Source: Escherichia phage phiWec187. Taken from it: a stretch of DNA of 64,000 nt. Position 1 is the first letter of the stretch. The number at the start of each line of letters is the position of its first letter. This document shows positions 16,751-35,158 of the stretch, in pieces. The stretch is taken from sequence record LC739536.1; one strand, written 5' to 3'. The notes under the pieces were generated by a model. The model had not been told where the DNA came from, did not search any database, and saw only the letters and a list, made by a program, of their open reading frames with translations. Made by a program: the position numbers and the translations under genes.

Positions 16751-19700
16751 TCAATGACAACTAGCCCATGAGTTACCAACATCGTAACCAGCAGTGAGAG
16801 GTACATTAAGATTGTAATACTCACCAGCTTTATTAACAGCGATAGATGCTAATTCTCCAGCACGACTGTAGGCTGTAAACCAACCACCTTTCGGAGATTC
16901 ATGTACGTTAGCCCAAATCTTGCCAGTACGTTTCTCTTCCTCTTCTTTCCAGGTATTAACTTTATCCAAACATTCTTTATCAATTTTCTTTTGTTCTTCT
17001 GGATCATCAACTTGAGTCCAACCTAAAGATTCTTTAGAGAACCATTTAAAATGCACCAGATCACGAGTTACTTCAAGCTGTGCTTCATCGTGATATGCAA
17101 TCATTTGTTGAACGAATGACTTATTTTTCCAGTCATCAACAAAAAAGTCAACAGCTAATCCTTCTTCTTCGATAAGATCGTCGTAGATAACCATTGCTCT
17201 TTTTGCACAAATAACACCACCACTCTGGAACAGAGAGTTAAGTATTGCGTGTGCAGATCGTGTAGGTACTTTTCTACCATCAATACCGAGAATGTATTTC
17301 TTACCTGTTTTAACCCAAAAATCATGCAGACGTTCTTTAAGAAGCGCAAGAGGTTTTGCAGCTTCCCAGAAAGCATCGTATACAAGCTGTCCTGTATACA
17401 TATCACTACCTATAGTTTTTGCTACTTTTGCAGCTTGAGCGCCGTACGTGCAGTTACCTGTCAACGTGATAAAACCATTCTGACGCATAACAAAAGATTC
17501 ATTCTTGGTTGAGATACAGAATACATCTGTTACTCGTGAAAAAGCTCTTGTCAACCTCTGTCCTGAAATAGTTTGTCCGTTATTGATTGCCAACGTTAAC
17601 ATGCCATCTTTTTGAACAGAACCATACGCAATATTACCTGTCATATTGATAGCCAAAGAAACAGCGTCGCTAATCTTACCTTTCTTTTGACGGATAACAA
17701 GACTGCCGTTTGGACGCTTATGACCATCTGCCATCCAGAATGCCTCTAAGAATGCTTCCAACACAGCTTGACCTTGATTAGCAATTAATGTAGACCAGTC
17801 CACTTCGTGCTTATTTTGACCCACTTCAACGCCACATTTAGTCAAAAATTCCCTAAACTGACTCTTATTAGGACGTAATGAATGCATCGTTCCAGATACA
17901 TACTCGTCAAATGTGAAGATATCTCCCACAGCCTCACGTGCTTCTTCTAAGAATTTTTTCTCATCTTGATCTACCGTGACTGTAATACCCATTACTTTAT
18001 TTCTGGCTTTGCCAGACCACTTATAGTAGCCATCCGAAAGAAGCCAGCCTAAGAAACGACCTTCTTCCACTGTTAGAGTAGACACCACACCAGATCGCCC
18101 TGCTGCAATTATGTTTGACTCCGAGTTTAAATCCTCTGTAGATCTACGCTCCACTTGCATATACTTAACATTGTTACCATCTGATCGCATAGTTTTTCTC
18201 TGTGCGTTAATCCACATATGATCGTTAGTAACTTCTACTTTGAACCACTTGTTACCGAGAGAGACAACTTCTGCATCGTTATAGTCCCACAGCTTAAGAA
18301 TAGGGGTATATTCGTAAAGAGCGGTGTGAGTATTATAAGATAAAACTTCATCCCCTACAAAAAGATCTTTACGTTTCTTCCAACCCGTTCTTGTTAACAC
18401 TTCCGTATTATCTACAGGTACACAACCGTATTTAACGCTCTTAGCAGGACCACGTTCAAACTTACGTCCAATAATATCAGTAATATGTTTTGCCATCATA
18501 GTATGCACATCGTTTGGTTTTTCTAACAGAAGTGCATTACAGTAAGCATGATCAGGATTATCATATCTCCACGTATAATGCGACTCAATCTTCGCCTCTA
18601 ATGAATCAAAGTCATAACCAATCTGGAAGTATTTAGGAACCTCTACACCAAATAAGTTACGCATTTCATATCCGTACAGAGATGTTACACGTGGGATATT
18701 TGCTACTAACCTATGTTTCATACGAGATGTAGCTGCATCACACGTTGCAGCAGGAGTTGGTATACGACCATCAGCCCTTACTGCTGCCAGATAACCTTTA
18801 TCGTAATCCTCTTCTTCTTCCCAATCAGCACCACCCCCTAGAATAGAGTTCCTACGGTGTTTATACGTAAGATACTGCACAACCTGCGTAGCATAAGGAA
18901 ACTTTTCACCTAGTGCTTCCAAGTTAGGACAAATATCTTTCTCTTGCCCTTTTGTAAAGGAAGGGTTAGTAAGCACTTTAACACCACGACCTTTAGCTTT
19001 AGCAATACGATCTCTTAGTTTCCATTCCAAAGTTTCTGGTGTGCACTCCAGATGATCACATCTGTCCTGGCAGAAATTAGATGCTAATGTTTGATCAACA
19101 TAGTCACGAATGGCTTTCTCCATTTGTGCTTCATCTTTCTTAATCTTAGTGCCAGATTTAAGAGTGATATCTTTATCTTTATATTCAGATGGACTCCAAC
19201 CTAAACCAACTAACCAATTTTTAATATGTGTTGTGTCGTCTAAAGTAGCAGGTACTGTAGGATCACAAATAGGTTCTTCTGCTGGAATAGGTAGTTTAAA
19301 CTCTTTACCTAATGCAAATAACCACCAACCATCTTCTTTTTGTACAAGTTCACCAGAATGTTTCTCTGCAAACTTTATCATGTTACTTGAAGGTTCACCA
19401 TTCTTTTTAAACTGTAGTTTAGGTGGAATGAATGATTTCAAATAACCTTTAGTAGCAGGTTTAGGAGGTAGCACAGGTTCTGCCTCTAAACGACATGCTT
19501 CCATTCGAGCATCCAGATCACGAATATTATCTTCTGCTTGTTTCATGTTGAAAGCAAAGCCACGGTGCTCTTGACGTGTAATAATATCAGCTACACGTTG
19601 TTCTAAGTTAAATGGTTCAGACCACTTATTATAATCACCCCACTCTTCCATCAAATAACGGAACACTGCGGTGTTAGCTTTGTTATCGTAAATACAGTAA

Positions 19701-20299
19701 TACAGCATATCTGCTGCAAATGTTCTAAATCTTTCAGTTTCAGGGATGTTTTTTCTGAAATCAATTTTAACATCCCCTCCAGCTTTCTTAGATAACTCTG
19801 CCAGACTATGACCACCGAAGCGATCAGGGTTTAGTGTCTTACTTAAGATCATAGTATCACAAATTTCAATGTTACTATTACCCCAAGTATTGTACTTAAT
19901 ACTGTAGTTGAGTTTAAAAAATAATTTAATTGCCAGTAAGTCGAAGTTAATGATGTTGTGTCCAACTACTTTGGTAATTTTATAGTTTGAATTACCTTTA
20001 AATTTACCTGTTCCGTTTACAAAATCAGGAAAATCTTTAAGAGGGAAATGGGTATATTCTAAATGCTCATATTCCTCCAGTCGGTATTCATACTTTCCGT
20101 CAGTCTCAACATACGGACGACCATCGAAAAGATATTTATCACCATCATGGAAAGCAATAATCTCTCCAGTATCATGACTTTCGCACACAATACAGTGCAT
20201 TGCAAAACTATCTTTTAAACGATATGGACTTGCCAAGTAATCTACACTTTCGTCATTAAGCAAGTTGTTACTTTCAATGTCGAAAGTAAAAGCTCCCAT
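16751..20299 (-). CDS. family A DNA polymerase with N-terminal 3'-5' exonuclease, interrupted by an intein
   Basis: Motif B region RGPAKSVKYG...CTYGAQAAK split by a 324-aa insert; motif C AYHDEAQLE; N-terminal exonuclease-like FDIESN. Confidence 0.85.
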   Translation of the reverse strand: MGAFTFDIESNNLLNDESVDYLASPYRLKDSFAMHCIVCESHDTGEIIAFHDGDKYLFDGRPYVETDGKYEYRLEEYEHLEYTHFPLKDFPDFVNGTGKFKGNSNYKITKVVGHNIINFDLLAIKLFFKLNYSIKYNTWGNSNIEICDTMILSKTLNPDRFGGHSLAELSKKAGGDVKIDFRKNIPETERFRTFAADMLYYCIYDNKANTAVFRYLMEEWGDYNKWSEPFNLEQRVADIITRQEHRGFAFNMKQAEDNIRDLDARMEACRLEAEPVLPPKPATKGYLKSFIPPKLQFKKNGEPSSNMIKFAEKHSGELVQKEDGWWLFALGKEFKLPIPAEEPICDPTVPATLDDTTHIKNWLVGLGWSPSEYKDKDITLKSGTKIKKDEAQMEKAIRDYVDQTLASNFCQDRCDHLECTPETLEWKLRDRIAKAKGRGVKVLTNPSFTKGQEKDICPNLEALGEKFPYATQVVQYLTYKHRRNSILGGGADWEEEEDYDKGYLAAVRADGRIPTPAATCDAATSRMKHRLVANIPRVTSLYGYEMRNLFGVEVPKYFQIGYDFDSLEAKIESHYTWRYDNPDHAYCNALLLEKPNDVHTMMAKHITDIIGRKFERGPAKSVKYGCVPVDNTEVLTRTGWKKRKDLFVGDEVLSYNTHTALYEYTPILKLWDYNDAEVVSLGNKWFKVEVTNDHMWINAQRKTMRSDGNNVKYMQVERRSTEDLNSESNIIAAGRSGVVSTLTVEEGRFLGWLLSDGYYKWSGKARNKVMGITVTVDQDEKKFLEEAREAVGDIFTFDEYVSGTMHSLRPNKSQFREFLTKCGVEVGQNKHEVDWSTLIANQGQAVLEAFLEAFWMADGHKRPNGSLVIRQKKGKISDAVSLAINMTGNIAYGSVQKDGMLTLAINNGQTISGQRLTRAFSRVTDVFCISTKNESFVMRQNGFITLTGNCTYGAQAAKVAKTIGSDMYTGQLVYDAFWEAAKPLALLKERLHDFWVKTGKKYILGIDGRKVPTRSAHAILNSLFQSGGVICAKRAMVIYDDLIEEEGLAVDFFVDDWKNKSFVQQMIAYHDEAQLEVTRDLVHFKWFSKESLGWTQVDDPEEQKKIDKECLDKVNTWKEEEEKRTGKIWANVHESPKGGWFTAYSRAGELASIAVNKAGEYYNLNVPLTAGYDVGNSWASCH
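17453..18424 (-). mobile_element. intein with LAGLIDADG-type homing endonuclease inside DNA polymerase motif B
   Basis: Begins CVPVDNTEVL (intein block A), ends ...LTGN with +1 Cys; internal GWLLSDGYY and LEAFWMADGH resemble the two LAGLIDADG helices; removal restores K-x3-YG-x2-YG. Confidence 0.75.
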
Positions 20300-20392
20300 T
20301 CTCCCTCCTTAAAATATTTCTAAAGTCTTAATTTGTTAATACTGTACCATAAATTAATTGTTTTGTAAAGGGGCTTTCGCCCCTTCTTGTTA

Positions 20393-20795: not shown

Positions 20796-22568
20796 TTAAT
20801 AAAAACCATCAGGAATATTCTCTGGGTTACTTGTGTATTGATCGTAATCGTGAAGTGTAGCTGTTTTAATCTCATAGAAGAAACTACCTGCTGCACCAGT
20901 CTCTGAGAACTCACGGTTCTTTAGAATGTAGCAATATGTGCGGTTACGTTCCATAGGATCTTCAGCTTGTTTATCACGCTCCAGCGCAATTGTGATACCA
21001 GCACCTTTAGCAAGGAAGCTACTACCCATTGCATCATCTTCTACAATATGTTCATTACTATTGTTAGAAGACTTTTTAACGTGTGAAATTACAACAATGG
21101 TAATTGCGTACTCTTTCATAATGCGTTTGAGCCACGTCGCAAGTTCCTCTTGTTGTGACACGTCCATACCAGAAAGCAAGTCAGAATAAGGGTCGATAAC
21201 AAGAATGGTTACTCCGAAATAAATAATCATTTCCAGAACCTTCTCTTTAATCACATCTACGTTAGCCCCACGATCATCACAAACATAGAAACGTGGTGTT
21301 CCATCTTCTCGTTCGTAAAAATCACGAATCTTTTCTTCATTATCTTTTAAAATCTTTTCCTTCTCTTCTTTTGTTTTACGGTGAAGAGGGATGTGCAAGA
21401 ATGAAGACAGTAAGTTACGAGAATACTTCTTATACGTTGCCTCCAAAGATAAAATACCAAGAGTATGTTCTGGGTGTGCAAGAATAATGTGCTTCGTAAT
21501 CTCGTTAACCAACAGTGTTTTACCGATACTTGTTTTTGCAAGTATAACAGTAATTTCTTCTTCTACCAAGCCTCCACCTAACATATTAGAAGCAACACGC
21601 ATGAATGGAGGAAGGGTGATCATTTTAGCTTCCAGGCATTCCAAGGCTGCTTCATACAGTACGTTAGAAGCATAAACACCAGCAGGTGTGTACAGTTTAG
21701 CTTTGAAAAAGCGATCAAGAAAGTGATCAATTTTTCCTTCTACTAGTGCCTGGTTAGGATCTTTAACATCCGTTAGTTCCATCACGTAAACTTTATTACG
21801 TGGTAAGATTTTAACACATTTCTCAACTGCTGCACGTCCAGCTTCATCATTATCCATACACAGAACAATCTTTTTAAATTGATCTAAGAATTTATAACGA
21901 TGTTGAAGCTGCTTATGCAGAGATGTTTCGCCACAAGTGCCAGATACTACAGCAGGAACAGGATATTTACCGCCCTTGTTATAATCTTTTAGCATCTGTG
22001 TTGCAGCCAGCATATCGTGTTCACCACCAACGATTAGAATAGTACCGCTGTGGTTACGATATTTAAACTCACCAAAAAGATCACAATCCTTTCCTGTTTC
22101 ACCGATAGGATGCGAAAAATCTTTTGGATCAATACGTTGTTTATACCCAGCAATATTGTAATCTTTAGTTGTAGGGTATAGTGTTGAAATTACTTCGCCA
22201 GTAGCTTCATCGTACATATAGCGTACACCGAAAGGTTTAGAGATATCTTCACGAATACCGCGATAACCTTTTGGATTAGTTCCAGTGCTGGCTTTTAGTT
22301 TATCATGTACTTCTGGATTAAACTCACTACCCAAGATATCCTCCTCTTCAATTTCTTCGCCGTGTGCATTTAACCATTTTTGATCAGGGATAGTAAAGCC
22401 ACAAGAAAAACAATGTGCTCCTCGATGGTCTTCATCGGCATCTAAGCCATATACCATCAAATTGTTTTGTGATCGATCACGCCCTCCTTTCATACAACGA
22501 GGACACCCAGTATGTCCTTCTTGACTTAAATCAATGTTATACCCATATTTATTTACAACATAAGACAC
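20796..22568 (-). CDS. bifunctional DNA primase-helicase (T7 gp4-like)
   Basis: N-terminal Cys4 zinc ribbon (CPRCMKGG...HCFSCGF), central TOPRIM-like region, C-terminal Walker A (AKTSIGKT) helicase domain. Confidence 0.8.
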   Translation of the reverse strand: MSYVVNKYGYNIDLSQEGHTGCPRCMKGGRDRSQNNLMVYGLDADEDHRGAHCFSCGFTIPDQKWLNAHGEEIEEEDILGSEFNPEVHDKLKASTGTNPKGYRGIREDISKPFGVRYMYDEATGEVISTLYPTTKDYNIAGYKQRIDPKDFSHPIGETGKDCDLFGEFKYRNHSGTILIVGGEHDMLAATQMLKDYNKGGKYPVPAVVSGTCGETSLHKQLQHRYKFLDQFKKIVLCMDNDEAGRAAVEKCVKILPRNKVYVMELTDVKDPNQALVEGKIDHFLDRFFKAKLYTPAGVYASNVLYEAALECLEAKMITLPPFMRVASNMLGGGLVEEEITVILAKTSIGKTLLVNEITKHIILAHPEHTLGILSLEATYKKYSRNLLSSFLHIPLHRKTKEEKEKILKDNEEKIRDFYEREDGTPRFYVCDDRGANVDVIKEKVLEMIIYFGVTILVIDPYSDLLSGMDVSQQEELATWLKRIMKEYAITIVVISHVKKSSNNSNEHIVEDDAMGSSFLAKGAGITIALERDKQAEDPMERNRTYCYILKNREFSETGAAGSFFYEIKTATLHDYDQYTSNPENIPDGFY

Positions 22569-22580
22569 ATGATTCTCCTA

Positions 22581-22850
22581 CTAAAATGATTCGTTTGTCT
22601 CCATAATATATTGCATTTCCAAATCTTCCATATGTTTCTTAAATTGGTAAACAATTTCCGATGGGGAAATATCTATATCAAAAAGTTCTTTTGTACCAGA
22701 ATAAAACCTAATACCGTCAACAATAAGGCCACCATAATAATCCCAATCACTTTCTCGTGAGAAAGGATTAGGTTCTTCATAATAGTAATCTACTTCAACA
22801 ATAATAGGTTCTTTATTATCTTGTTTATACTCAAAATCAAAAGTGTTCAT
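22581..22850 (-). CDS. hypothetical protein
   Basis: 89-aa acidic ORF. Confidence 0.35.
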   Translation of the reverse strand: MNTFDFEYKQDNKEPIIVEVDYYYEEPNPFSRESDWDYYGGLIVDGIRFYSGTKELFDIDISPSEIVYQFKKHMEDLEMQYIMETNESF

Positions 22851-23794
22851 TATAAATCCTCGATAAGCAGTCTGCGGGTTTCATTTAAATCATCAATATT
22901 GTAGTTATCTCTTACATACTTAGCAAGAGCCAATCCTTTCTCAATACAAACATCAGGAGATTCGATTAAGTATTCTACAATATCTTTCCACTCTTTAACT
23001 GAATCAGCAAAGAAGATTAGATCTTTAAATTCTTCAGTATAATAGTTCTCTCGTGGTGAACAAACGAGTGGCAAACCTTTAGCACCAGCTTCAAGAATTT
23101 TTAAATTACTTTTGGCATTATTAAAATGATTATTTACTAACGGAGCTATGGAGATTTGATGACCATCGTATGCTTCCATATAACACTCATAAGGACGAAT
23201 ACCTTCATAAACACAATCTGGTTGAATATCTTCTTTAATTTGCAACCATTGAGCACTACTTAACTCTTCGTGATCTCTACGAAATCCACATAAAGTTAAA
23301 TCTTTACCAAAAGCAGGAAGAATTGCTAAATCATGTTTATGGGTTTCACTTCCCGCCCAAACCAGTGGGCTTTTAGAATAACGATCTTTAGTAAGAACAA
23401 ACTGCCCTTCATCAAAAGGTAGTCCGTTAGGCACAATATGTACATTATCATTGTATTGGCTTAATTCGACCTTTAATGCTGGAGTTGTTGTAGTTACAAG
23501 ATCGCTTCTTTCAAGGAACCATTTTAGGTCATCTCGGATTTGATTTTCAAATAATCCTTCCAGCATATGCCCTTCAGGAATAATTAAAGAATCATCCAGA
23601 TCCATTACCAATTTAAACCCAAGTTGTTTAAGAGCCAGGAAACCTGGCTTTCCACGTGTTGGTACTCCATTGAACACAAAAATATTATGCTTAGGATTAA
23701 TGGTCAGTTTGCGTTTATATGGCAAAATGATTCTATGAAAATCACATACACTATACTTTTCATTTCCGCGTGTGTCAAGAATAATATTAGGCAT
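22850..23794 (-). CDS. glycosyltransferase (GT-B/GT1-like), paralog A
   Basis: C-terminal KSNLKILEAGAKGLPLVCSP resembles the GT1/GT4 sugar-donor binding region; paralogous to the adjacent gene. Confidence 0.5.
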   Translation of the reverse strand: MPNIILDTRGNEKYSVCDFHRIILPYKRKLTINPKHNIFVFNGVPTRGKPGFLALKQLGFKLVMDLDDSLIIPEGHMLEGLFENQIRDDLKWFLERSDLVTTTTPALKVELSQYNDNVHIVPNGLPFDEGQFVLTKDRYSKSPLVWAGSETHKHDLAILPAFGKDLTLCGFRRDHEELSSAQWLQIKEDIQPDCVYEGIRPYECYMEAYDGHQISIAPLVNNHFNNAKSNLKILEAGAKGLPLVCSPRENYYTEEFKDLIFFADSVKEWKDIVEYLIESPDVCIEKGLALAKYVRDNYNIDDLNETRRLLIEDL

Positions 23795-23805
23795 ATAACT
23801 CCTTG

Positions 23806-24780
23806 TTAAAGACTTTCAATAACTTGACGACGCAGTTCATTGGCATCTGCAAGATTATAATTAAGACGAACGTGTTCTGCAAGCATCATACCACGATCTT
23901 CTGTGTATCTAGGGTTCCTCATTAGCTTGACAACTTCATAATGCCAAGATGCTTTAGAGTCTGCATAGATAACAGCCTTTGCATCTACCGGATTGAAGTA
24001 CGGCAGCACAGGAGAACAGATAATAGGAAGACCCTTTGCACCTGCTTCCAAAATCTTCAAATTGCTTTTACAGTTGTTGAAGTCATTATCTACCAGAGGA
24101 GCAATTGCAATACTGTGACCGTCATACACAGACATATACTCACCTAAATTTTTAATAGCTGGTTTATACTGTGCATTTGGAATTTTACGTTTTACTTTAA
24201 CCCACTCCGCAGTAGTTAGATACTGACTATTATTTCCAACAGGTGCAGAAGGATACACTTCATACCCTGCAATTGTCAATAGCGTATCATCAAATGTATT
24301 AGCTACAAGAGATAAATCAGGTTCATGGCTTGCTCCTCCCGCCCAAATAATAGGCGTGTCAGAATAACGGTCTTTTGTCAAAGTAAATTGACCTTCGTCG
24401 TAAGGTAGTGCGTTTCTAATAACGACAACATTACGATTTAAATGACGAATTTTGTAAGCTAGGTATTCTGTTGTTACAGTAACCACATCTGCTAACTTAA
24501 TCATCTCTACAATAGTCTTTGAGTGATTAGTAAATACGCCAGCCATATAATGTTCAGGATTAAGCGAATAAAAATCATCTAAATCAACAATAATCTTAAC
24601 ACCTTGTGCCTTCAGGCGTTTAACCTCGTCTGATCCACGAGAATACACTCTATTAAAAACTAAAACGTCTTTCTTAGGTTTAAACGTATTTCCAGCAAAT
24701 GGCATTACAATACGATGGTAATCACAACCACTGCCTAACTTATTATCACACTTAAGTACAGGAGTATTAGGATTTACCAT
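23806..24780 (-). CDS. glycosyltransferase (GT-B/GT1-like), paralog B
   Basis: KSNLKILEAGAKGLPIICSP and shared DLDD/IAPLV blocks with paralog A; start set at ATG 24780 after AGGAGG. Confidence 0.5.
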   Translation of the reverse strand: MVNPNTPVLKCDNKLGSGCDYHRIVMPFAGNTFKPKKDVLVFNRVYSRGSDEVKRLKAQGVKIIVDLDDFYSLNPEHYMAGVFTNHSKTIVEMIKLADVVTVTTEYLAYKIRHLNRNVVVIRNALPYDEGQFTLTKDRYSDTPIIWAGGASHEPDLSLVANTFDDTLLTIAGYEVYPSAPVGNNSQYLTTAEWVKVKRKIPNAQYKPAIKNLGEYMSVYDGHSIAIAPLVDNDFNNCKSNLKILEAGAKGLPIICSPVLPYFNPVDAKAVIYADSKASWHYEVVKLMRNPRYTEDRGMMLAEHVRLNYNLADANELRRQVIESL

Positions 24781-25453
24781 ATTTTTGAGCCTCCTCATAA
24801 GAGATAAAAGTTTTACCATTGCGAAGATCCTCCAGTGATTGTTTATATTGTTCCCAGTTTACACCAATCCCCTGTTCTTTCTCTTCTTTTGACAGATTTG
24901 CAAAAGGTAAAGGATTGTCTCCAAACACATCGTCAGGATGGATAAACGCCATAATTCGAATAGGACATGGTACGCCGTGAATACCTCGGTTCAAACCTGC
25001 AAGTGGAACGCGCTGAATCCACTCTGCATCTTCATATCCATAACCGTGGGTGTATGAGCGGAAATAGCCAGCTTTCTCAATAACTGCACGGGAATACATA
25101 CCAAACTGGCACATGCCTAGCTCCCAAATAACTACTTCTCCTTCAATACCTTTTACTTTATCTTTAAAGTATTCAGGCATACCAAAGAAATCCCAACCAT
25201 TTTCCTTCGCCTGTTTTACAAAATATGTTTCCCAACCTGGAACAACAGGATAACAATCATCATCAAAAATAAACCAGTAGTCATACCCTTCATCATAAAA
25301 CTTTTTCATCAGTTCATTACGGGCATATGCAACACCTTTTCGTTCACGATCATACTGTACAACAAAAGTAGCATTAGGATCAGTTACAAGATAATCTTTA
25401 AGAGGACGCTTACCTACAGTAATAACACCAACACCAATTTTTGTATTTTCCAA
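24767..25453 (-). CDS. glycosyltransferase (GT-A/GT2-like)
   Basis: WFIFDDD (DxD-type) and GYGYEDAEW motifs typical of GT-A fold transferases. Confidence 0.55.
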   Translation of the reverse strand: MENTKIGVGVITVGKRPLKDYLVTDPNATFVVQYDRERKGVAYARNELMKKFYDEGYDYWFIFDDDCYPVVPGWETYFVKQAKENGWDFFGMPEYFKDKVKGIEGEVVIWELGMCQFGMYSRAVIEKAGYFRSYTHGYGYEDAEWIQRVPLAGLNRGIHGVPCPIRIMAFIHPDDVFGDNPLPFANLSKEEKEQGIGVNWEQYKQSLEDLRNGKTFISYEEAQKYGKS

Positions 25454-25462
25454 AATAACTCC

Positions 25463-26026
25463 TTAAATAATTTTATTCATGTCTTGACAATGTAAAAGGT
25501 GTGAAACAGCTTTTCTAGGATCATCATTACCTAAACGGTATGTGTGAAATAAATATAACCCACGTAGTAAACCTAGCCTTTTATTGTTAGCGTGCAATGC
25601 TTTAGAGAAAATTATATCAAACTGTATTGATCTTTCCTCAAAAGGAATTTCATTCCACAGACTCTTACGAAAGAGAAGAAAGAATCCTGCTAAGATAGCA
25701 TCTGTAGGTACTTCCTCTATTGAGTTTCCCCATTCTAGATGTGCTCTTTTTGCAATCTCAATGTGGTGTAATATATTCGGATCTTCACTTCTTTCATTAT
25801 TAAATAATTGATATGTTGATCCCAATCTGTTACAAGATGCACCAAGAACATCAAAATCAGGATTTGAACGGACAATTGATTCCAGCCAAGCAGGTTGTTC
25901 TGGAAGAAGAAACATTGTATCAATGTCTCTTAGGCAAATCCAACTATCTTCTGGTAAGACACTTATTGTGTCATTGATACCTTTTCCAATATCTCCAGAA
26001 AGATAGGGAGTTATGTGAAATATCAT
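25463..26026 (-). CDS. hypothetical protein, possible GT-A-like transferase
   Basis: 187 aa; CLRDIDTMFL could be a DxD-type motif; weak. Confidence 0.3.
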   Translation of the reverse strand: MIFHITPYLSGDIGKGINDTISVLPEDSWICLRDIDTMFLLPEQPAWLESIVRSNPDFDVLGASCNRLGSTYQLFNNERSEDPNILHHIEIAKRAHLEWGNSIEEVPTDAILAGFFLLFRKSLWNEIPFEERSIQFDIIFSKALHANNKRLGLLRGLYLFHTYRLGNDDPRKAVSHLLHCQDMNKII

Positions 26027-26774: not shown

Positions 26775-27284
26775 TTAGCGATAGAATTGATGTTCTTTGT
26801 AGCGGTACACTAGAACCATATCTTTTTCCCAGTGTGCTCTTATTGTAGATTTTTTAAAGTATAATGCTCCTTTTGTAATATCTAATGCAATTCGTAATTC
26901 TGGAAAATGCGTATCGAGATAAAGTAGACGTTCTGCTATAGCCTTAGCTTCCTTCCACTTATCACGTTCCATAACGTTGAATGTCTTTGTGTAAGAGAAT
27001 TGTCCTTTTTGAAACAAAACTTCTTTTATAGTATCAGGGAAATATGAATCTCTAGCCCTATTCAATACTACATTACCAACAGCAGACATACCGCGCTTTC
27101 CTTGATTACGACTTTCTGCATAGATTGCACAAGCTAATAGATTTTCTTTACTATCACGCTTTGTACACTTGTGAACTACTTTAGCAGTTTTTACGTTTGC
27201 AGCTTCGGCTTGCGCCACAACAGGTGTAAATGTAAAAGCAGTTAAGGATAGTAACGCAATTGCGACAAAGGTTTTTATTGACAA
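26775..27284 (-). CDS. secreted cell-wall hydrolase (SleB/CwlJ-like)
   Basis: N-terminal signal peptide (MSIKTFVAIALLSLTAFTFTPVVAQA); AIYAESRNQGKRGMSAVGNVVLNRARDSYFPDTIKEVLFQKGQFS matches the SleB-type hydrolase core. Confidence 0.55.
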   Translation of the reverse strand: MSIKTFVAIALLSLTAFTFTPVVAQAEAANVKTAKVVHKCTKRDSKENLLACAIYAESRNQGKRGMSAVGNVVLNRARDSYFPDTIKEVLFQKGQFSYTKTFNVMERDKWKEAKAIAERLLYLDTHFPELRIALDITKGALYFKKSTIRAHWEKDMVLVYRYKEHQFYR

Positions 27285-27999: not shown

Positions 28000-28024
28000 T
28001 AAAATATGCGCCCCGAAGGGCGCT
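28000..28024 (-). terminator. rho-independent terminator after the TerD gene
   Basis: gcgccc-cgaa-gggcgc hairpin followed by a U-run on the minus strand. Confidence 0.55.
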
Positions 28025-28032
28025 ATGATTTA

Positions 28033-28629
28033 TTACTCGAACCAATCGTCGCCAGCGCCAAACGCTTTAACTACATCGTAAATGTCAAGCCCAGCTTTAC
28101 CCACACCATACGCTTTCAGTTTCCATTCGCTATCTTCTCGCACCAGGGAGGCAACGTGGCAAATGGTGTTACCTGCAAGTTCTGGAGCCAAGAAGTCAAA
28201 GTCCAGCAGTTCAACATTACGTTCATCATCGAAGATTTTAAGGAAACCTTCGGTAGCGTGACCAAGGCGTTTCTTACCCGTTTCGTCATCAATAGTAATT
28301 ACGAATGCAATTTCCTGTGCTTCAGCAGAGATATTATCCAGTGTAACATCAATCTGCTCCATCTGTCCTACACCATCACGAACATCTTCACCTGCAAAAG
28401 TAGAACGTTCAGGATCAAATTTCTGCGCGTAGCACACCAGGTGACGAGGAGACAACAGTTCCGGCAGACCAGATGCATTGTGTCGGCAAATCAGAGCACT
28501 AACATCCAGATCCAGTTTTTCGTTAGATTTCCAAGAGAATTCCAGACGAATGCGTTTCAGTGCTGGTGCAATCTTTTTCAGAGAAACTTTTTCGCTAGAA
28601 CCTTTTTTCAGGGAAATTTTCTGAGTCAT
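28033..28629 (-). CDS. terD: TerD-family protein
   Basis: Aligns by eye along its length to TerD: SLKKGSSEKVSLKK, LDLDVSALIC, IAFVITIDD, SEWKLKAYGVGKAG against SLSKGGNVSLSK, FDLDASAFLL, IIFVVTIHD, GEWKFRAVGQGYAG. Confidence 0.8.
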   Translation of the reverse strand: MTQKISLKKGSSEKVSLKKIAPALKRIRLEFSWKSNEKLDLDVSALICRHNASGLPELLSPRHLVCYAQKFDPERSTFAGEDVRDGVGQMEQIDVTLDNISAEAQEIAFVITIDDETGKKRLGHATEGFLKIFDDERNVELLDFDFLAPELAGNTICHVASLVREDSEWKLKAYGVGKAGLDIYDVVKAFGAGDDWFE

Positions 28630-28701
28630 AATTTATTATCTCCTTTGTTGTTAATTTACGTTGTCTATTTTACTAATCTTTTCTACAAAGTCAAGCGTTT
28701 T

Positions 28702-29496
28702 TTACGCTTTTGCTCCAAATTTTTTAACCCACTCACCAAACTCTTCGGATAGCAGTTTATCGTAAAGTTCTTCGTCAGACAAGGACAAATCTGCAATACC
28801 GATAAAATCAACATTATCGTATTCTTTTGCCAAGTCTTTCAGGAATTTAAAGTTTGCATTACCTACACCAACCATAAACCAGTAAACAGGCGTATTGCGG
28901 TGTTTGTTCAGTAAGCTACGTACTGCTGAAGTATCCATGTTCTCCCCGTCAGTTTGGAAGAAAATCATTGCAGGAGTACGATCAACTTGTGCATCAGTAT
29001 CTACAACCTGTTCTACAACAGTACGTGTTACTTCTACAAGTTCTTTTTTACCAGTTAGTTTAGCAAGGAAACCTTTAGCCGGAACTTCTTCATACTCAAC
29101 GACTTCGCGTGTAATATTTTTCATAGGTACACTACCGAAGTATGTATCATAGATCTCTTGCATTACTGGAGCATAAGCAGTACCACCGTTGATGCAAACA
29201 TTAGACATGCAAGAGCCGACATAATCATCATACACATCAGCCGTTGCAGGAGGCAGTTCAAAAGAAGAACTATTGAAAGCCCACATGTCAATCTGTGCAT
29301 TATCATCAAACTTCATACCAAACGGCAGTAGCTTACCTACAAAATCACTGACAGTGCCATCACGATATAGCTCACACATACTACCCGAAATATCTAAGGC
29401 GCTACCGACACGAAGAACAACATCGTTAATCTTTTTCTTACGCAGAGATACAGTAAGAGTCTCTTGACGTTTTTTAAGACTGATTTTATTGGACAT
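28702..29496 (-). CDS. vWA-domain protein (TerY-like)
   Basis: MIDAS motif DISGSM plus downstream FFQTDGENMD (TDG motif); N-terminal ISLKK..LTVSLRKK resembles the TerD N-terminus. Confidence 0.6.
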   Translation of the reverse strand: MSNKISLKKRQETLTVSLRKKKINDVVLRVGSALDISGSMCELYRDGTVSDFVGKLLPFGMKFDDNAQIDMWAFNSSSFELPPATADVYDDYVGSCMSNVCINGGTAYAPVMQEIYDTYFGSVPMKNITREVVEYEEVPAKGFLAKLTGKKELVEVTRTVVEQVVDTDAQVDRTPAMIFFQTDGENMDTSAVRSLLNKHRNTPVYWFMVGVGNANFKFLKDLAKEYDNVDFIGIADLSLSDEELYDKLLSEEFGEWVKKFGAKA

Positions 29497-29497
29497 A

Positions 29498-29767
29498 TTA
29501 TTTCTCCTTTTTGACTGTAATGTTAGTAACTTCTAAATCCACTTCTACCACTTCTATATCATATAAAATACAGTTAAGTTGACCTCTTTGTGAACCGTTC
29601 AGACACATTGCTTGGTTTGTATTAACCTTAATAAACACTAAGTTTCTGAACGTATCTAAACCAGCATCTTGATAGGCAAAATAATATACAAATGTATCAC
29701 CTGCGTCAAGTTCTCCAAAACATTTAGGTTCATATGATTCGTCGTCTTTGATATTAAATTTAAGCAC
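29498..29767 (-). CDS. hypothetical protein
   Basis: 89-aa ORF. Confidence 0.35.
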   Translation of the reverse strand: MLKFNIKDDESYEPKCFGELDAGDTFVYYFAYQDAGLDTFRNLVFIKVNTNQAMCLNGSQRGQLNCILYDIEVVEVDLEVTNITVKKEK

Positions 29768-30323
29768 TATCTTCTCCTTTACCTACTTTCAAGCCTAAAT
29801 AGAAAGCCTCTCTAGTGATTTTTTGCAACTCGTTTAAAGAGATAGTTACAACTAAATCATCTTCAATTTCTAGCTTTGAGTCTTCTTCTGTCTCAATGCA
29901 AGTATTATGCACTTTGTGGTAAGGATTGTCAACACGTTTAAATTTATTATTTTCAGTGCTGAAGAAGCAATCTGGATCTTCTTCCACATCACCCCAACCC
30001 TGGTTAGGATCTTCTTCAGATCTTTCTGTTGGGATCTCACCTGTAAAGTGCTCTTCTAATACCAGAGCAATCCCATCTCCAGGATCGGAAGAGAACATCA
30101 AATTACAAACTTCTTCCCAAGGCATAGACCACTTAAATCTTTTACGATTGCCATGTTTATCTTCTTCGTTAGAGAAAACACTACCATAGCTATCATAATT
30201 CCCATACATCTCTTCGACAACCTTACCACCTTTCAAAAGAAATAGGTAGCAAGGAGAGCCATCGAAAGAGGTAGAAAGAGCAGCATTACCAGACTCTTTG
30301 CACAAGAAACTAAAACACCCCAT
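29760..30323 (-). CDS. hypothetical acidic protein
   Basis: 187-aa ORF. Confidence 0.35.
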   Translation of the reverse strand: MGCFSFLCKESGNAALSTSFDGSPCYLFLLKGGKVVEEMYGNYDSYGSVFSNEEDKHGNRKRFKWSMPWEEVCNLMFSSDPGDGIALVLEEHFTGEIPTERSEEDPNQGWGDVEEDPDCFFSTENNKFKRVDNPYHKVHNTCIETEEDSKLEIEDDLVVTISLNELQKITREAFYLGLKVGKGEDSA

Positions 30324-30523
30324 TATACACCAGCCTTAAGATCAATTAAAGCCAAAGTTGTTTCAGAGTGTGTTTGCTCGTCTACAGGTGCAGTCATATG
30401 ATAATACAAAAAATCTTCGGCATCATACCAATCTGATTCTTGACCTTGTTTCCAACCATCAATGAAAGCATCTTCCATAATGGTTTGCAATTCTTCACGA
30501 GTTAAGTGAATATCTTTACTCAT
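30323..30523 (-). CDS. hypothetical small protein
   Basis: 66-aa ORF, translationally coupled. Confidence 0.3.
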   Translation of the reverse strand: MSKDIHLTREELQTIMEDAFIDGWKQGQESDWYDAEDFLYYHMTAPVDEQTHSETTLALIDLKAGV

Positions 30524-30756
30524 TACACATTCTCCTCTTTTACCAAGTCCATCGTTGAACTATCAAAACCATCTTTAGAAGAATAGGTATAGACAGAACG
30601 TAGTTCTCGCAGGACAGTGAATACATTAGGATCATCTAACCAAGCATCCTGGAGGAGAACATAACGATCTTCATTGTCATACTGAACAGCAATCATAGAA
30701 CCAGACAGTTTGTAAATTTTAATATTCATAATATATTTCTCCTTAAAGTAGACCAC
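30523..30756 (-). CDS. hypothetical small protein
   Basis: 77-aa ORF. Confidence 0.3.
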   Translation of the reverse strand: MVYFKEKYIMNIKIYKLSGSMIAVQYDNEDRYVLLQDAWLDDPNVFTVLRELRSVYTYSSKDGFDSSTMDLVKEENV

Positions 30757-31846
30757 GTTTAACAGTTTGAATCATACCATCTTCAAGAGATTGCACTTCT
30801 TGAATGTAATCAATACGCGCAGCACGGGCTTCAGTGTTGATTCGGTTAGTTTCTTCCAACATTTTAACTAAGTTTTCTTGATCGCGACGTAATGTTTCAA
30901 TATCCAATACTTGACGATTAGCAAGTTGTGTAGCTTCAATTTGGTTTTGTGCAGCCAGATCACTACCCATTGCAATAGCAGCATTAAATTCATTCAGCAC
31001 ATTGTTCTGTGTATCGGCTGCTTTCTTCTGGCGTAGACTTTCAATATACATAGAAAAGTTTGCAGAGTAAGCAGGGATAACATTATTCACAATATTACGG
31101 GCTGATCGCATCAAACTTGCAGATACTTTCTGCATACTTTGTACACGTGGCCCCATCTGAACACACAGTAAACGCAAGGCTTTCAGGTCTGCAATACGAA
31201 TTTCAAGCAGATCCATAGTATCACGAGTACGTTGACGCTCTTCTACTTCATTTTCAGGTAGTGTATTAAGGCGAACTTCTTCTTTTTCATAAGTAGCTGT
31301 TAGAAGCTCTATATCCCTGTTTAAGCTAAGAGCATATTTTGCAATAGCCTCTTCTAAACGTTGCAGATATCGTAAAGAATCTTCTTCTTTTTTCAAGTCT
31401 GTTTGTAGTGTCTTTACCAAACCTTCAATACGATTATTGATGGTGTCAAATTCACCAAACAAATCTTCTTTCATACCTAATACTTTCTTAACCAGTTTAC
31501 CTAAGCCTTTAGATTGTTTAATAGAGTTAGGATCAAGTTGCTTTGCTTGCTTAATAAGTGCAGTTAAACGTTCACTCATTTCATCCCCCTGAGATGAACG
31601 CTGGTGTTTAAGCACTTCAGCATTAAGGTTACGAAGAGTAAGTCCTGCATCAGCACCAACTTGTTCAATCTCTTCACGAGACATTGGAGGCAGCATTTGT
31701 ACAGGTCGTGCAACAGCAGGGGCATATACAGGGCTTGCATCCATAGCACTTGGAGCAAACAAAGACTTACTTTTTTCTGTTGTTGCCGTGAATACACTCA
31801 TTTCAGACGGTTTGCTTTTTACGGCACTGATAAAAGGACTGGACAT
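30743..31846 (-). CDS. coiled-coil protein, possibly TelA-like
   Basis: 367 aa, mostly helical/coiled-coil; size and neighbourhood (TerD, vWA, TerC) fit TelA but no motif was verified. Confidence 0.3.
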   Translation of the reverse strand: MSSPFISAVKSKPSEMSVFTATTEKSKSLFAPSAMDASPVYAPAVARPVQMLPPMSREEIEQVGADAGLTLRNLNAEVLKHQRSSQGDEMSERLTALIKQAKQLDPNSIKQSKGLGKLVKKVLGMKEDLFGEFDTINNRIEGLVKTLQTDLKKEEDSLRYLQRLEEAIAKYALSLNRDIELLTATYEKEEVRLNTLPENEVEERQRTRDTMDLLEIRIADLKALRLLCVQMGPRVQSMQKVSASLMRSARNIVNNVIPAYSANFSMYIESLRQKKAADTQNNVLNEFNAAIAMGSDLAAQNQIEATQLANRQVLDIETLRRDQENLVKMLEETNRINTEARAARIDYIQEVQSLEDGMIQTVKRGLL

Positions 31847-31914
31847 TCAATTTCCTCCGTATTCTTTAGTAGATGGTGATACCTCTGTACCACCATCATA
31901 ACACAAATTAAGTA

Positions 31915-32766
31915 TTAAACAAACATATCTAAATAATTTGTAGTAATAAATGCTCCATCTGCTTCCAGATTAACATAACCAGTAGCATTAGTGGTTAAGA
32001 AATCCAGATCGAAGGACTCTTTAACACCCCGTACCTCAACACGAGAGATATCGAATACAGGTAGTGTAACAGCCTCTTCGTGCAATACCGTACCTTTGTA
32101 GGTTGCCTTAATGATAAACTTGATATTACCCGTTCCAGCATCATACAAAACACTTTCAAACCCTTTGAGAGTATACTTATCACCAGAAGTGAAGTGCAAA
32201 GTTGCTTTGTTTACAGTACGTTTTTTACGAGGAGTTCCTTTCACACGTTTATGATCACTACGTTTTTTGTATTTAGGAATGAATACAAACGATACATTGT
32301 GAAGAAAGGTATCAACATCAAGGATTTTAATATCCTCTGTTGCAGCAAATTTTGAAGTTGTTGCATCAAAATGCTTTTCCCGGCGATCATACATAAAGAT
32401 ATCAAACCGATCTTCTAAATCAAACAAATTATGTATTTTAATTTCAGAATGCTTGCGCATTGCAGCAACCTTGAACTCTTCAAAACGTGGGTGTTCTACA
32501 AGTTCTTCAAGTTTTACACCAAAGACAGTATATTGCTTCGGAGTTTTTTCTGGTGTTGGCATTACAGAAGCATAATCACCGATTGCGCTCTTAAAGCAAA
32601 ATTGTTCTTGACCTGTATTTTTACCAACGAATTTACAGTATTCGTCATCGTGCATACTTTCCTGGGTAGTACCAACAAACTCAAAACCATCTTTATTCTT
32701 CTCAAGAATTTCTTGATTAAAGATCCAACCTTCCAGGCGATATACTTTACCAACTTCTAGTTTCAT
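31915..32766 (-). CDS. hypothetical protein
   Basis: 283-aa ORF. Confidence 0.4.
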   Translation of the reverse strand: MKLEVGKVYRLEGWIFNQEILEKNKDGFEFVGTTQESMHDDEYCKFVGKNTGQEQFCFKSAIGDYASVMPTPEKTPKQYTVFGVKLEELVEHPRFEEFKVAAMRKHSEIKIHNLFDLEDRFDIFMYDRREKHFDATTSKFAATEDIKILDVDTFLHNVSFVFIPKYKKRSDHKRVKGTPRKKRTVNKATLHFTSGDKYTLKGFESVLYDAGTGNIKFIIKATYKGTVLHEEAVTLPVFDISRVEVRGVKESFDLDFLTTNATGYVNLEADGAFITTNYLDMFV

Positions 32767-32801
32767 CTGTTTCTCCTTCTTATTTAATCTGTATTAAATT
32801 A

Positions 32802-33392
32802 TTAACGACGACGTGAGCTACTAAAACTACGTTTCGACGAAGAATAACTTTTCGAAGACTTACTATAAGAGCTAACAGGACTTGAGTAAGACTTACCAGC
32901 AGAGTAATCACTATTCACTTTTGTTGTTGATGGGCGTGAATACGTTTGTACACTTTGCTGCTTAATTGTGTTTTGTTTAGTGGTTGTATATGTATTTCCT
33001 TGTTTATCATAAAAACTATGCTTTTGTGTTGTATATGCTTTACTATTAGTTGTAGGAGCAGCGTTGTTATTGATAATTGTTGTATTGCTACCGCCATCTC
33101 TATAACCACCACCGCCACTATTACCACTCAACATATGACCAAGAAGCATACCTGTAGCGAACTCACCTACGCCAGAAGAACCACTGCCGCCTCCTTGAAC
33201 AACAACTGTTGAAGGTTGTGCAGGTGCTGCTTGAACAACTTGAGGTGCAGGCTGATTTACATATTGTTCATCTACCATCTGATTTGGTGTTTGTTGGTAA
33301 CGTTGGTTTTGTACATTTTCAGAATCATCACAACCTACCAGCAATGCACTACCTAATACAACTGCAACAATAAAAGATTTAATGTTTTTCAT
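32802..33392 (-). CDS. lipoprotein, low-complexity Ser/Gly/Thr-rich
   Basis: Start at MKNIKSF after GAGAGGG; signal peptide with lipobox LVGC; C-terminal Ser/Tyr/Lys-rich tail. Confidence 0.5.
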   Translation of the reverse strand: MKNIKSFIVAVVLGSALLVGCDDSENVQNQRYQQTPNQMVDEQYVNQPAPQVVQAAPAQPSTVVVQGGGSGSSGVGEFATGMLLGHMLSGNSGGGGYRDGGSNTTIINNNAAPTTNSKAYTTQKHSFYDKQGNTYTTTKQNTIKQQSVQTYSRPSTTKVNSDYSAGKSYSSPVSSYSKSSKSYSSSKRSFSSSRRR

Positions 33393-33585
33393 TTGTAACC
33401 CTCTCATTTAAAGTCTCAACACAATTTTTAAAATCTCTAGAGAAACAATACATCTGTTCTCCGTTCCTGTTGATAGTAATTGTATGGTTATCAATATATG
33501 TTGTCAAGATAAAAATCAAACAAAACAACCCTAGAGCAAAACAAATATTTTCAAACAGAATCCAAAGAACACGTAAAACCACCAT
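33379..33585 (-). CDS. small membrane protein
   Basis: 68 aa with hydrophobic stretch FALGLFCLIFILTTYI. Confidence 0.3.
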   Translation of the reverse strand: MVVLRVLWILFENICFALGLFCLIFILTTYIDNHTITINRNGEQMYCFSRDFKNCVETLNERVTNEKH

Positions 33586-33624
33586 CAGATCACCTCAATA
33601 AAGCCCCCGAAGGGGCTTAATGAA

Positions 33625-34602
33625 TTAAGCAACAGCCTGGTCTTCTTTTTCAGGGAAGATTAAACTTGCAATAACACCCAGCCCAAGAGTACCTAACACA
33701 ATATACATACTGATCGTCGGATCAATGTGTGCTGGTAGGAAACTCACTTTTGCGTGCAGAGTTTCTGCAAACGGATGATACATCAGTTTTACACCCACAA
33801 ATACCAGGACTACGATAACTGCTTTCTCCAGATGAACCAAATACTTCAGTGCAACACTAAGAACAAAGAACAGAGCACGTAAACCTAAGATAGCACAGAG
33901 CATCGAAGAGAACACCAGCAGAGGTTCTTGTGTCACTGCAATCACTGCTGGAACAGAGTCTACTGCAAAGATTACGTCAACCATTTCCATTACAAACACA
34001 CAAACCAGAGCCGGAGTTGCTACACGAACACCATTTTTGATTGTGAAGAACTTCTCACCATCCATCTGATCAGATACAGGGAACAGCTTACGAACAATGC
34101 GAGTAGCCCAGTGTTTAGAGTAATCAACTTCTGCATCATTATCTCCAGCGAATACCATTTTAGCCGCACAGAAAAGGATGACCGCACCGAAGAAGATATT
34201 AACATACCAGCCCAAACTCAACAAGTAAGTGCCTACTGCTACAAACACACCTCGGAAGACAATCGCACCTGCAATACCCCAAAGTAGAATCTTGTGCTGC
34301 AAGTGTGTGCTTTTAATACCAAAACTTGCGAATACTGCCACAAATACTACTAAGTTATCTACAGAAAGAGATTTCTCCAACACATACCCACTTAAGAACA
34401 AGCTCGCAAAATCAGCACCGTGTTGGAAGTATACAAAACCATAGTAGGCTAATGATACCCCAATCCAGAAAATTGACCAGCCAATTGCAGATTTAAATGA
34501 AATTTCTTTGTTTTCTCTGTGTCCAAAGAAATCAATACAAATCGACAAGACTAAAATACCCACTAAAACAACCACATCAATAATTGGGAAACCCAGTTGC
34601 AT
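33625..34602 (-). CDS. terC: TerC-family integral membrane protein
   Basis: Multiple TM helices plus the two TerC signature blocks LEKSLSVDNLVVFVAVF and VIFAVDSVPAVIAVTQEPLLVFSSMLCAILGLRAL. Confidence 0.8.
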   Translation of the reverse strand: MQLGFPIIDVVVLVGILVLSICIDFFGHRENKEISFKSAIGWSIFWIGVSLAYYGFVYFQHGADFASLFLSGYVLEKSLSVDNLVVFVAVFASFGIKSTHLQHKILLWGIAGAIVFRGVFVAVGTYLLSLGWYVNIFFGAVILFCAAKMVFAGDNDAEVDYSKHWATRIVRKLFPVSDQMDGEKFFTIKNGVRVATPALVCVFVMEMVDVIFAVDSVPAVIAVTQEPLLVFSSMLCAILGLRALFFVLSVALKYLVHLEKAVIVVLVFVGVKLMYHPFAETLHAKVSFLPAHIDPTISMYIVLGTLGLGVIASLIFPEKEDQAVA

Positions 34603-34679
34603 TCTTTTCTCCTCTTTAATGCGGAGGACAATCCTCCGCTCTATGTCTTATACTATAAACTGTTTTTAAAGAAAGTCAA

Positions 34680-34928
34680 CTAGTTCAGTTCTGTAATTTT
34701 AAGTTTATCTTCTTTGTTAATGATAGGGAAAGCTACAGCATCACCTACATCATCAATAAAGCAAATAGCAAGACCACCTTCCACTTTGCTAACCTGACCA
34801 TTAAAGGCATGATACGGGGCAGGAACTTCATCTCCATCTTCAATGAGAATAGCCTCGTAAACCTTGCCGATAGTACAATCACGGGTGTTTATAAATTTTT
34901 CAAGCACTTCAACATTTACTTTACGCAT
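34680..34928 (-). CDS. hypothetical protein
   Basis: 82-aa ORF. Confidence 0.35.
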   Translation of the reverse strand: MRKVNVEVLEKFINTRDCTIGKVYEAILIEDGDEVPAPYHAFNGQVSKVEGGLAICFIDDVGDAVAFPIINKEDKLKITELN

Positions 34929-34942
34929 ATAAAGATCCTCTC

Positions 34943-35149
34943 TTATTTGTTAGATTGAAAGATACCACGGAGTACCGCAAGAATGAACGTCACACAGACT
35001 ACACTCCAAAACGTTACAGGAACATGATGCCAGTCTAAGCCGATAATGTCAATCATATAATTGTATGCTAAAAGCAGTAGCCAACTAGGGATTAACACAA
35101 TCAAGAACACAACAATAAAACAACCTAATACTGCTAAAACACCTGCCAT
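34943..35149 (-). CDS. small membrane protein
   Basis: 68 aa, two predicted TM helices. Confidence 0.35.
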   Translation of the reverse strand: MAGVLAVLGCFIVVFLIVLIPSWLLLLAYNYMIDIIGLDWHHVPVTFWSVVCVTFILAVLRGIFQSNK

Positions 35150-35158
35150 ACTTTCTCC

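Follow-up and report, generated by a model that had tools for sequence, protein, structure and literature searches.

A glycosyltransferase cluster tied to a predicted rhamnose supply in a phi92-like Escherichia phage, with phage structural proteins as possible acceptors

The closest described counterparts of the genes considered here are phi92 gp163-gp166 and their orthologs in the genera Justusliebigvirus and Phapecoctavirus (Eryne CDS0044-0047, EmilieFrey bas61_0046-0049). RefSeq labels each of gp163-gp166 'glycosyltransferase', and the manual annotation of EmilieFrey (BASEL) lists two 'putative disaccharide synthase' and two 'putative glycosyltransferase' genes. Olsen et al. (2020), prompted by the placement of the rml genes, suggested that hydroxymethylated nucleotides are glycosylated with rhamnose. 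The genes, their annotation and the idea of DNA glycosylation are already public, and the finding in that form is already known. We analyzed the set carried by Escherichia phage phiWec187 in a 64,000-nucleotide stretch of its genome (sequence record LC739536.1; hereafter, the window). An initial annotation had placed a glycosyltransferase (GT) cluster at 22850-26026, made up of two GT-B paralogs, a GT-A enzyme with a DDD motif and a possible fourth transferase, and had suggested that it adds sugars to phage DNA bases. Four intact minus-strand open reading frames (ORFs) are present there and the enzyme assignments hold; the modification of DNA bases is not borne out. We tentatively propose instead that the cluster assembles a rhamnose-containing glycan from a self-supplied donor, on an acceptor that would not be DNA and would most likely be the phage's own structural proteins.

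Genome-wide traits were taken from relatives whose cluster regions are 98.6-99.4% identical to that of the window. Between window positions 22500 and 26300 there are 55 phage records that match at 95% identity or more, led by Escherichia phages Eryne, Nernie and VivaForever (99.3-99.4%), with phi92 at 98.6%; by this measure the window phage is a phi92-like myophage (Justusliebigvirus, Stephanstirmvirinae). Across the 20 best-matching records the cluster is 98.5-99.4% identical in nucleotide sequence, with identical gene order and protein lengths. The four transferase genes are:

22850-23794, minus strand: GT-B copy A, 314 amino acids, intact, GT4-like, isoelectric point (pI) 5.2, the diverged duplicate
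23806-24819, minus strand: GT-B copy B, 337 amino acids as called, intact, GT4-like, pI 8.9
24767-25453, minus strand: GT-A228, 228 amino acids, intact, TTG start, GT2 / Glyco_transf_7C-like, probably inverting
25463-26026, minus strand: GT187, 187 amino acids, intact, minimal GT-A, first transferase gene of the operon

The GT-B copies are paralogs, as first noted, with 41% identity (E value 1e-82) and a common block, KSNLKILEAGAKGLP. Both have two Rossmann-like domains and find their nearest structural matches among GT4 enzymes; their structural neighbours include PglH/PglJ-type enzymes, PimA, WbnH, WaaG, WaaB, BshA, MshA-like enzymes, sucrose-phosphate synthase and TreT. An invariant E235, in LEAGAKGLP, corresponds to the second Glu of the E-x7-E / EAxAxGxP motif, while the position of the first Glu is unconserved. 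Copy A scores 26.9 bits against Pfam Glyco_trans_1_2 (cutoff 25) and copy B only 14.7 bits; copy B matches phrog_7162 at 3.7e-149. Both copies are probably retaining, GT4-like enzymes. The true start of copy B is probably Met14 (nucleotide 24780), since a GAGGAGG ribosome-binding site lies upstream of it and the resulting 324 amino acids equal the length of the homologs. Copy B is 66% identical to the single GT-B of a Klebsiella phage, 52% to that of the distant phage locus L007, 43% to that of Burkholderia and 37% to that of locus L012; because all four are nearer to copy B than to copy A, copy B is ancestral and copy A its diverged duplicate. Three records labelled 'Campylobacter phage' (A150, MG065639.1; A110a, MG065689.1; B15, MG065650.1) encode a GT-B 76-99.7% identical to the coliphage GT-B and have matching genome sizes; these are probably mislabelled or contaminant isolates.

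In GT-A228 the DDD motif pointed out initially is invariant (D64-D65-D66), as are R16 and E141-D142. The model has a GT-A fold (predicted local distance difference test score, pLDDT, 87.4) with a single Rossmann-like domain and a DxD motif, and its best structural matches are GlfT2, GalNAc-T1, chondroitin polymerase, beta4GalT7, TarP, RmlT and SpsA. Against Pfam TAGT (PF20691) the protein scores 23.3 bits, below the gathering threshold of 27.5, and 12 of 18 close homologs give a weak TAGT match only (best E value 6.8e-5). A profile search of 1.84 billion representative proteins returned 1475 relatives of the wider family; among 80 of them that were sampled, Glycos_transf_2 was found in 40 (best 2.1e-17), Glyco_transf_7C in 37 and a weak TAGT match in 10 (best 1.6e-5). 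With a score below threshold and a wider family that resolves to GT2 and Glyco_transf_7C, membership of TAGT was dropped; GT-A228 is best classified, from these profiles, as a GT2/GT7-like transferase related to TAGT at the superfamily level only. Its R...DDD...ED signature resembles one reported from phage GT-A enzymes of DNA modification. The beta4-galactosyltransferase and GalNAc-transferase families, which do not act on DNA, have a similar (W/Y)G-x-E-D motif as well.

The suspected fourth transferase, GT187, matches PHROG glycosyltransferase families (phrog_14179 at 5.5e-113, phrog_26101 at 9.6e-24) and no Pfam family, and its D34-x-D36 motif is shared by 95% or more of 46 homologs. Its identity is 74% to a 189-amino-acid gene product of Klebsiella phage phi1_175008, about 34% to small transferases in the metagenomic loci L014 and L015, and 35% (tblastn) to the C-terminal part of gp41 of Cellulophaga phage phi18:1. 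None of the four proteins has a transmembrane segment: the Kyte-Doolittle maximum over 19 residues is at most 1.21 (1.03 in GT187), against 2.08 and 2.84 in two other window proteins taken as controls. No NCBIfam family matched any of the four, and a sequence search of the PDB with copy A, GT-A228 and GT187 returned nothing meaningful. Fold comparison supports the GT-B and GT-A folds, and types of acceptor are not separable by fold. It is well supported that the four genes encode cytoplasmic Leloir glycosyltransferases. A Klebsiella phage of the Stephanstirmvirinae has two transferases only (one of the 187-amino-acid type and a single GT-B), and the E. coli phages seem to have reached four through duplication of the GT-B and addition of a GT-A. 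The cassette is modular, as expected for stepwise building of a glycan.

The genes for the presumed donor lie outside the window, and their presence in phiWec187 is deduced from its 99% identity to relatives. EmilieFrey carries rmlB, rmlA, rmlC and rmlD, located among nucleotide-metabolism genes. With 167 phage records for RmlC and 142 for the GT-B, the two have near-identical taxon profiles (Escherichia, 105 vs. 106; Klebsiella, 8 vs. 10; both in Justusliebigvirus and Phapecoctavirus). Locus L007 has, in a row, a GT187 homolog, an RmlB-like dehydratase, a GT-A228 homolog, a GT-B, a small ORF and the primase-helicase. A tie between the transferases and a private supply of dTDP-L-rhamnose (dTDP, deoxythymidine diphosphate) is well supported, and this co-distribution, together with the RmlB-like gene inside the L007 cluster, makes a rhamnose-type donor sugar likely. 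In Eryne (L004 15716-17026), which also has RmlC and RmlD, an in-frame fusion joins rmlB to the 3' half of rmlA, and the resulting protein of 436 amino acids is without the N-terminal part of the thymidylyltransferase; EmilieFrey (L009 10422-12289) has separate, complete rmlB and rmlA. Because rmlA of Eryne is truncated, some members of the genus may depend on RmlA or RffH of the host.

We suggest that a dTDP-L-rhamnose pathway belonging to the phage, located outside the cluster in the genomes of close relatives, would feed the soluble enzymes, two GT4-like GT-B and two GT-A, which would act stepwise. The product would be a short glycan of at most about four sugars, rhamnose among them, and the acceptor one or more virion structural proteins, as in the capsid glycosylation of mycobacteriophages and chloroviruses. 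The proposal builds on the observed folds, catalytic motifs, operon layout, rml co-distribution and lack of membrane segments.

For a structural protein as acceptor there is weak support, from the analogy just given and from gene neighbourhoods, in which distant homologs lie within or beside head and packaging modules, often with sugar-type methyltransferases and sugar-nucleotide enzymes. In L012 a GT-A and a GT-B are immediately upstream of genes for the small terminase, portal, protease and capsid, and no base-activating enzyme is visible in the replication module of that locus. In L013 the small terminase is directly preceded by an acetyltransferase and a GT2, and the GT-B homolog is found about 4 kb further upstream. 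In L014 the stretch from terminase to portal/capsid holds a small transferase, a GT2, a polysaccharide deacetylase and two Methyltransf_24 proteins, and a UDP-galactopyranose mutase is close by. Streptomyces phage KimJongPhill carries a UDP-glucose dehydrogenase, a methyltransferase and a glycosyltransferase ahead of the terminase. In Cellulophaga phage phi18:1 a Methyltransf_24 and a two-domain transferase are placed between the gene for a MuF-like minor capsid protein and those for protease and capsid, and no TET/JBP match was found at this locus. Of the other loci with distant homologs, L011 groups a GT2, a second GT-B, an epimerase/dehydratase, a radical-SAM enzyme and an aminotransferase in one cluster, and L015 carries some ten glycan genes, among them those for GT-D, TOD1/MUCI70, DegT and Stealth-type proteins. 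Weak homologs of GT-A228 occur in 341 Mycobacterium phage records (about 26% identity, E values down to 7e-8); in the one record inspected, Fruitloop gp99 (26% identity, E value 2e-7) is at the genome end where the related Che8 carries glycosyltransferases, and the Che8 capsid carries glycans according to PMC11256854, which cites Freeman et al. (2023). A phage with a broad host range and its own donor would also need an acceptor that is the same in every host, again pointing to the virion.

The two bacterial GT-B homologs that we examined (L005 3025-8440, Burkholderia dolosa; L018 100-5501) adjoin an invasin/intimin-type protein and a pertactin-type autotransporter adhesin. The phi92-like phages carry a tail fibre annotated with intimin-like domains, which may hint at acceptors of the adhesin type.

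Several observations weigh against virion glycosylation. Che8 gp108-110 have no BLAST or hidden Markov model match to the four window proteins, and direct homology to them was rejected. In a relative, the capsid, decoration and tube proteins showed no Ser/Thr-rich tail that could serve as an acceptor, and the sheath protein has a weakly Ser/Asn-rich end that is not convincing. In this phage the cluster is in the replication operon rather than the structural module, and the rml genes keep company with nucleotide metabolism; placement next to a terminase fits modification of DNA before packaging equally well. Known phage DNA transferases also resemble enzymes of lipopolysaccharide (LPS) and teichoic-acid synthesis, and fold therefore cannot separate the hypotheses. 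A literature search returned no experimental DNA composition or virion glycosylation for this phage group.

The operon location has the following elements:

22581-22850, minus strand: acidic ORF, 89 amino acids, pI 4.1, conserved; its start overlaps the stop of copy A (ATGA)
20796-22568, minus strand: T7 gp4-like primase-helicase, annotated in all relatives; next gene, same transcription unit
28008-28023, minus strand: terminator-like GC-rich hairpin, six G-C pairs followed by a T-rich tail
20368-20385: second terminator-like hairpin, beyond the primase-helicase region

From the transferase genes through the primase-helicase, gaps between genes range from -53 to +12 nucleotides, and 57 nucleotides separate the cluster from a small ORF upstream. 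Given this tight, partly overlapping packing and the flanking hairpins, the four transferase genes and the primase-helicase appear to be co-transcribed as one operon, with the hairpin at 28008-28023 probably its upstream boundary. The transferases had been described as lying downstream of the primase-helicase; in the order of transcription they are upstream of it. The order GT-B, small ORF, primase-helicase, PolA is retained in the distant phage loci L006 and L007. The 89-amino-acid ORF has no Pfam family, and a 71-amino-acid ORF at the corresponding position in L012 is unrelated to it; conserved only where the gene order is the same, and not in L012, it was ruled out as a shared partner of the GT-B.

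The apparent operon also includes a SleB-type cell-wall hydrolase with an N-terminal signal-peptide-like segment (26775-27284, minus strand; Pfam Hydrolase_2, 6.5e-20), and relatives have a second endolysin annotated elsewhere. The family-A DNA polymerase (16751-20299, minus strand) has 1182 amino acids here vs. 859 in Eryne and EmilieFrey. Its residues 626-950 (about 17450-18424) are an insertion that starts with Cys, ends in ...TGN followed by Cys, splits KYG|CTYGAQ and is absent from close relatives; it looks like an intein with LAGLIDADG-like segments.

Glycosylation of DNA bases, also the proposal of Olsen et al. (2020), would place rhamnose-containing sugars on a modified base, for example downstream of a phage Dcm-like C5-methyltransferase and an unrecognised oxidase, and would have to be sparse or sequence-specific. 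We consider it unlikely. It draws on the operon shared with the primase-helicase near PolA, in an order kept in distant phages, and on the rml genes amid nucleotide metabolism; in T4, b-gt likewise adjoins gene 42, close to the polymerase, and oligosaccharide modifications of DNA are known. GT-A228 adds its DNA-enzyme-like signature, the sub-threshold TAGT score and PHROG matches labelled 'beta-glucosyl-HMC-alpha-glucosyltransferase'. Set against these, TAGT membership fails, BLAST gives no convincing similarity to the T4 alpha- and beta-glucosyltransferases (the best match covers 14 residues, E value 0.013), and three of the four transferase proteins are acidic.

Enzymes that could prepare a base for glycosylation were sought in the complete annotation of Eryne and in that of EmilieFrey from 35.2 kb to its end, with candidates scanned against Pfam and NCBIfam. 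In phages, hydroxymethyl- and hydroxy-pyrimidine nucleotides are known to be made by homologs of ThyA. The initial annotation had seen no hydroxymethylase in the window, and indeed none is annotated in the matching part of the two relatives or found among the Pfam-scanned window ORFs; by annotation and Pfam/NCBIfam scans, no ThyA-type hydroxymethylase or hydroxylase turned up in the relatives. The search it had advised for a hydroxymethylase or thymidylate synthase in the rest of the genome, run here on the relatives, yielded a ThyX-type protein only (323 amino acids; Pfam Thy1, 4.2e-9; 35.5 bits against TIGR02170, below the cutoff of 87.9). There are 1034 phage records with this protein, those of the Vequintavirus, ICP1, Pakpunavirus-type, N4-like and phiCbK-like groups among them, and none of these groups is represented in the 142 records of the GT-B search. 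Because most of its records fall outside the groups with a GT-B match, it was ruled out as a hidden hydroxymethylase partnering the cluster. The relatives do carry a Dcm-like C5-cytosine methyltransferase (PF00145, 2.1e-43), a point in favour of DNA modification, but it is about 60 kb from the cluster, and neither its neighbourhood nor 29 ORFs of the relatives whose annotation is missing or doubtful gave a Tet_JBP match, in a search that a very divergent oxidase could escape.

The DNA of these phages is also exposed to restriction. Despite this machinery, phi92-like phages were reported to be 'exceptionally susceptible' to restriction-modification systems (Maffei et al. 2021, PMC8594841). Avoidance of 6-bp palindromes, with expected counts from a maximal-order Markov model, is like that of T7 and unlike that of T4 (means are of log2 observed/expected):

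This window (64 kb): palindromes -1.65, 18 of 58 testable ones absent; non-palindromes -0.04
T7 (unmodified DNA): palindromes -1.62, 13 of 56 absent; non-palindromes -0.03
T4, first 50 kb (glucosylated hydroxymethylcytosine DNA): palindromes -0.16, 0 of 53 absent; non-palindromes -0.04

In the window, palindromes and non-palindromes differ strongly (Mann-Whitney, p = 1.5e-15). The whole Eryne genome has no AAGCTT (45 expected) and no CTGCAG (32 expected). GATC is not avoided there (652 observed vs. 645 expected), which fits a phage-encoded Dam-like methyltransferase, and CCWGG occurs 187 times, its avoidance judged from a rough composition estimate only. The lineage evolves with its DNA exposed to type II restriction. 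Such avoidance argues against blanket hypermodification, not against sparse modification, and the conclusion that bulk DNA is not the acceptor is moderately supported. A sparse or motif-specific rhamnose oligosaccharide on DNA, made without a ThyA-type hydroxymethylase or TET/JBP oxidase and neither protecting from the restriction systems tested nor relaxing palindrome avoidance, strikes us as very improbable; if real, it could have a role in packaging, in discrimination of phage from host DNA or in evading another defence.

The initial annotation had also allowed for modification of the cell surface. The enzymes would then work on the cytoplasmic side of the inner membrane and remodel a conserved glycan of the host envelope, be it the LPS core, the enterobacterial common antigen or some other lipid-linked intermediate, which could block superinfection or keep progeny off debris; this, too, we regard as unlikely. 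The structural neighbours of the GT-B pair that act on lipid-linked or LPS acceptors (PglH/PglJ-type, PimA, WbnH, WaaG, WaaB) are consistent with it, as are the BASEL label 'putative disaccharide synthase' and a bacterial homolog with more GT4 and GT2 genes beside it. LPS core and surface glycans serve as receptors of these phages, and copy B is basic, as expected of a peripheral membrane enzyme. Yet the phage is strictly lytic, and replacing surface glycans would be slow within one lytic cycle. Known serotype conversion by phages is the work of temperate phages and membrane enzymes of the Gtr type; the cluster has no membrane segments and no flippase or GT-C partner, and its homologs in small phages reside in head modules, not in moron positions.

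More doubtful still is some other acceptor, be it a host protein glycosylated during takeover, RNA/tRNA, or a small molecule or nucleotide, for instance one made by the Ter, PRTase, HAD and macrodomain neighbours, to which the small-molecule transferases among the GT4 relatives (BshA, MshA-like, sucrose-phosphate synthase, TreT) and the content of the next transcription unit lend some colour, but a terminator-like hairpin separates the two units, no co-occurrence with Ter genes was seen in the distant loci L011-L015, and nothing positive speaks for any particular target. The next unit (28033-37392, minus strand) is a Ter-type cluster, which we take to resemble the Ter-associated 'nucleoside-like metabolite' systems predicted in bacteria:

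28033-28629, minus strand: TerD
28702-29496, minus strand: vWA-TerF-like
30743-31846, minus strand: TelA
33625-34602, minus strand: TerC
35159-35992, minus strand: Macro domain
35868-36725, minus strand: ComF-like PRTase_3
36718-37392, minus strand: HAD hydrolase

A 201-amino-acid ORF at 32802-33407 (minus strand) has no Pfam family and a Ser/Lys-rich C-terminal tail (SSYSKSSKSYSSSKRSFSSS). Serine-rich tails serve as glycosylation targets in some systems.

The phi92-like and phAPEC8-like phages have a very broad host range and are candidates for therapy cocktails, and about eight of their genes are devoted to this system (four transferases and the private dTDP-rhamnose pathway). We know of no earlier documented glycan coat on a phage of Gram-negative bacteria. 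If virion proteins are the target, this would be the first, and it would matter for immune recognition and the stability of the particle, as has been reported in mycobacteriophages; if DNA is the target, a new chemistry of base activation would be required. The published guess of DNA glycosylation is weakened by three independent lines of evidence, and virion glycoproteomics therefore merits at least equal priority with nucleoside analysis of the DNA.

Compared with phi92 gp163-gp166 and their orthologs, the genes are the same; outside the cluster, the polymerase of the window phage carries a putative intein that is missing in those relatives. T4 glucosylates hydroxymethylcytosine with gene 42 and the alpha- and beta-glucosyltransferases, whereas here there is no hydroxymethylase partner, the DNA is exposed to restriction, and many GT4 enzymes are structurally closer to the window proteins than the T4 enzymes are. 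In Gtr serotype conversion the flippase GtrA, the bactoprenol glucosyltransferase GtrB and the GT-C-type GtrC are membrane proteins; the cluster encodes none, and no such Pfam match was found. Glycosylation of the Bacillus subtilis spore surface involves a CgeB-like transferase, SpsA and the rhamnose genes SpsI-L, an analogy at the family level only, with neither close homology nor a common gene order.

The TAGT clusters (Pyle et al. 2023, preprint) are alike in combining GT-A with GT-B enzymes, in some cases together with a sugar epimerase, to make glycans of one to three sugars, in the R...DDD...ED-type signature of their GT-A enzymes and in having TarP among the structural neighbours. They are defined by having a C5-methyltransferase and a TET/JBP oxidase as neighbours, of which the former is ~60 kb off here and the latter was not detected. 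The virion-glycosylation cassette of Che8, as described from Freeman et al. (2023) in PMC11256854, comprises non-homologous proteins (gp108-110), and the phiWec187 cluster differs from it in its replication-operon location. The capsid glycosylation of chlorovirus PBCV-1 (A064R) is a further counterpart of the virion glycosylation proposed here.

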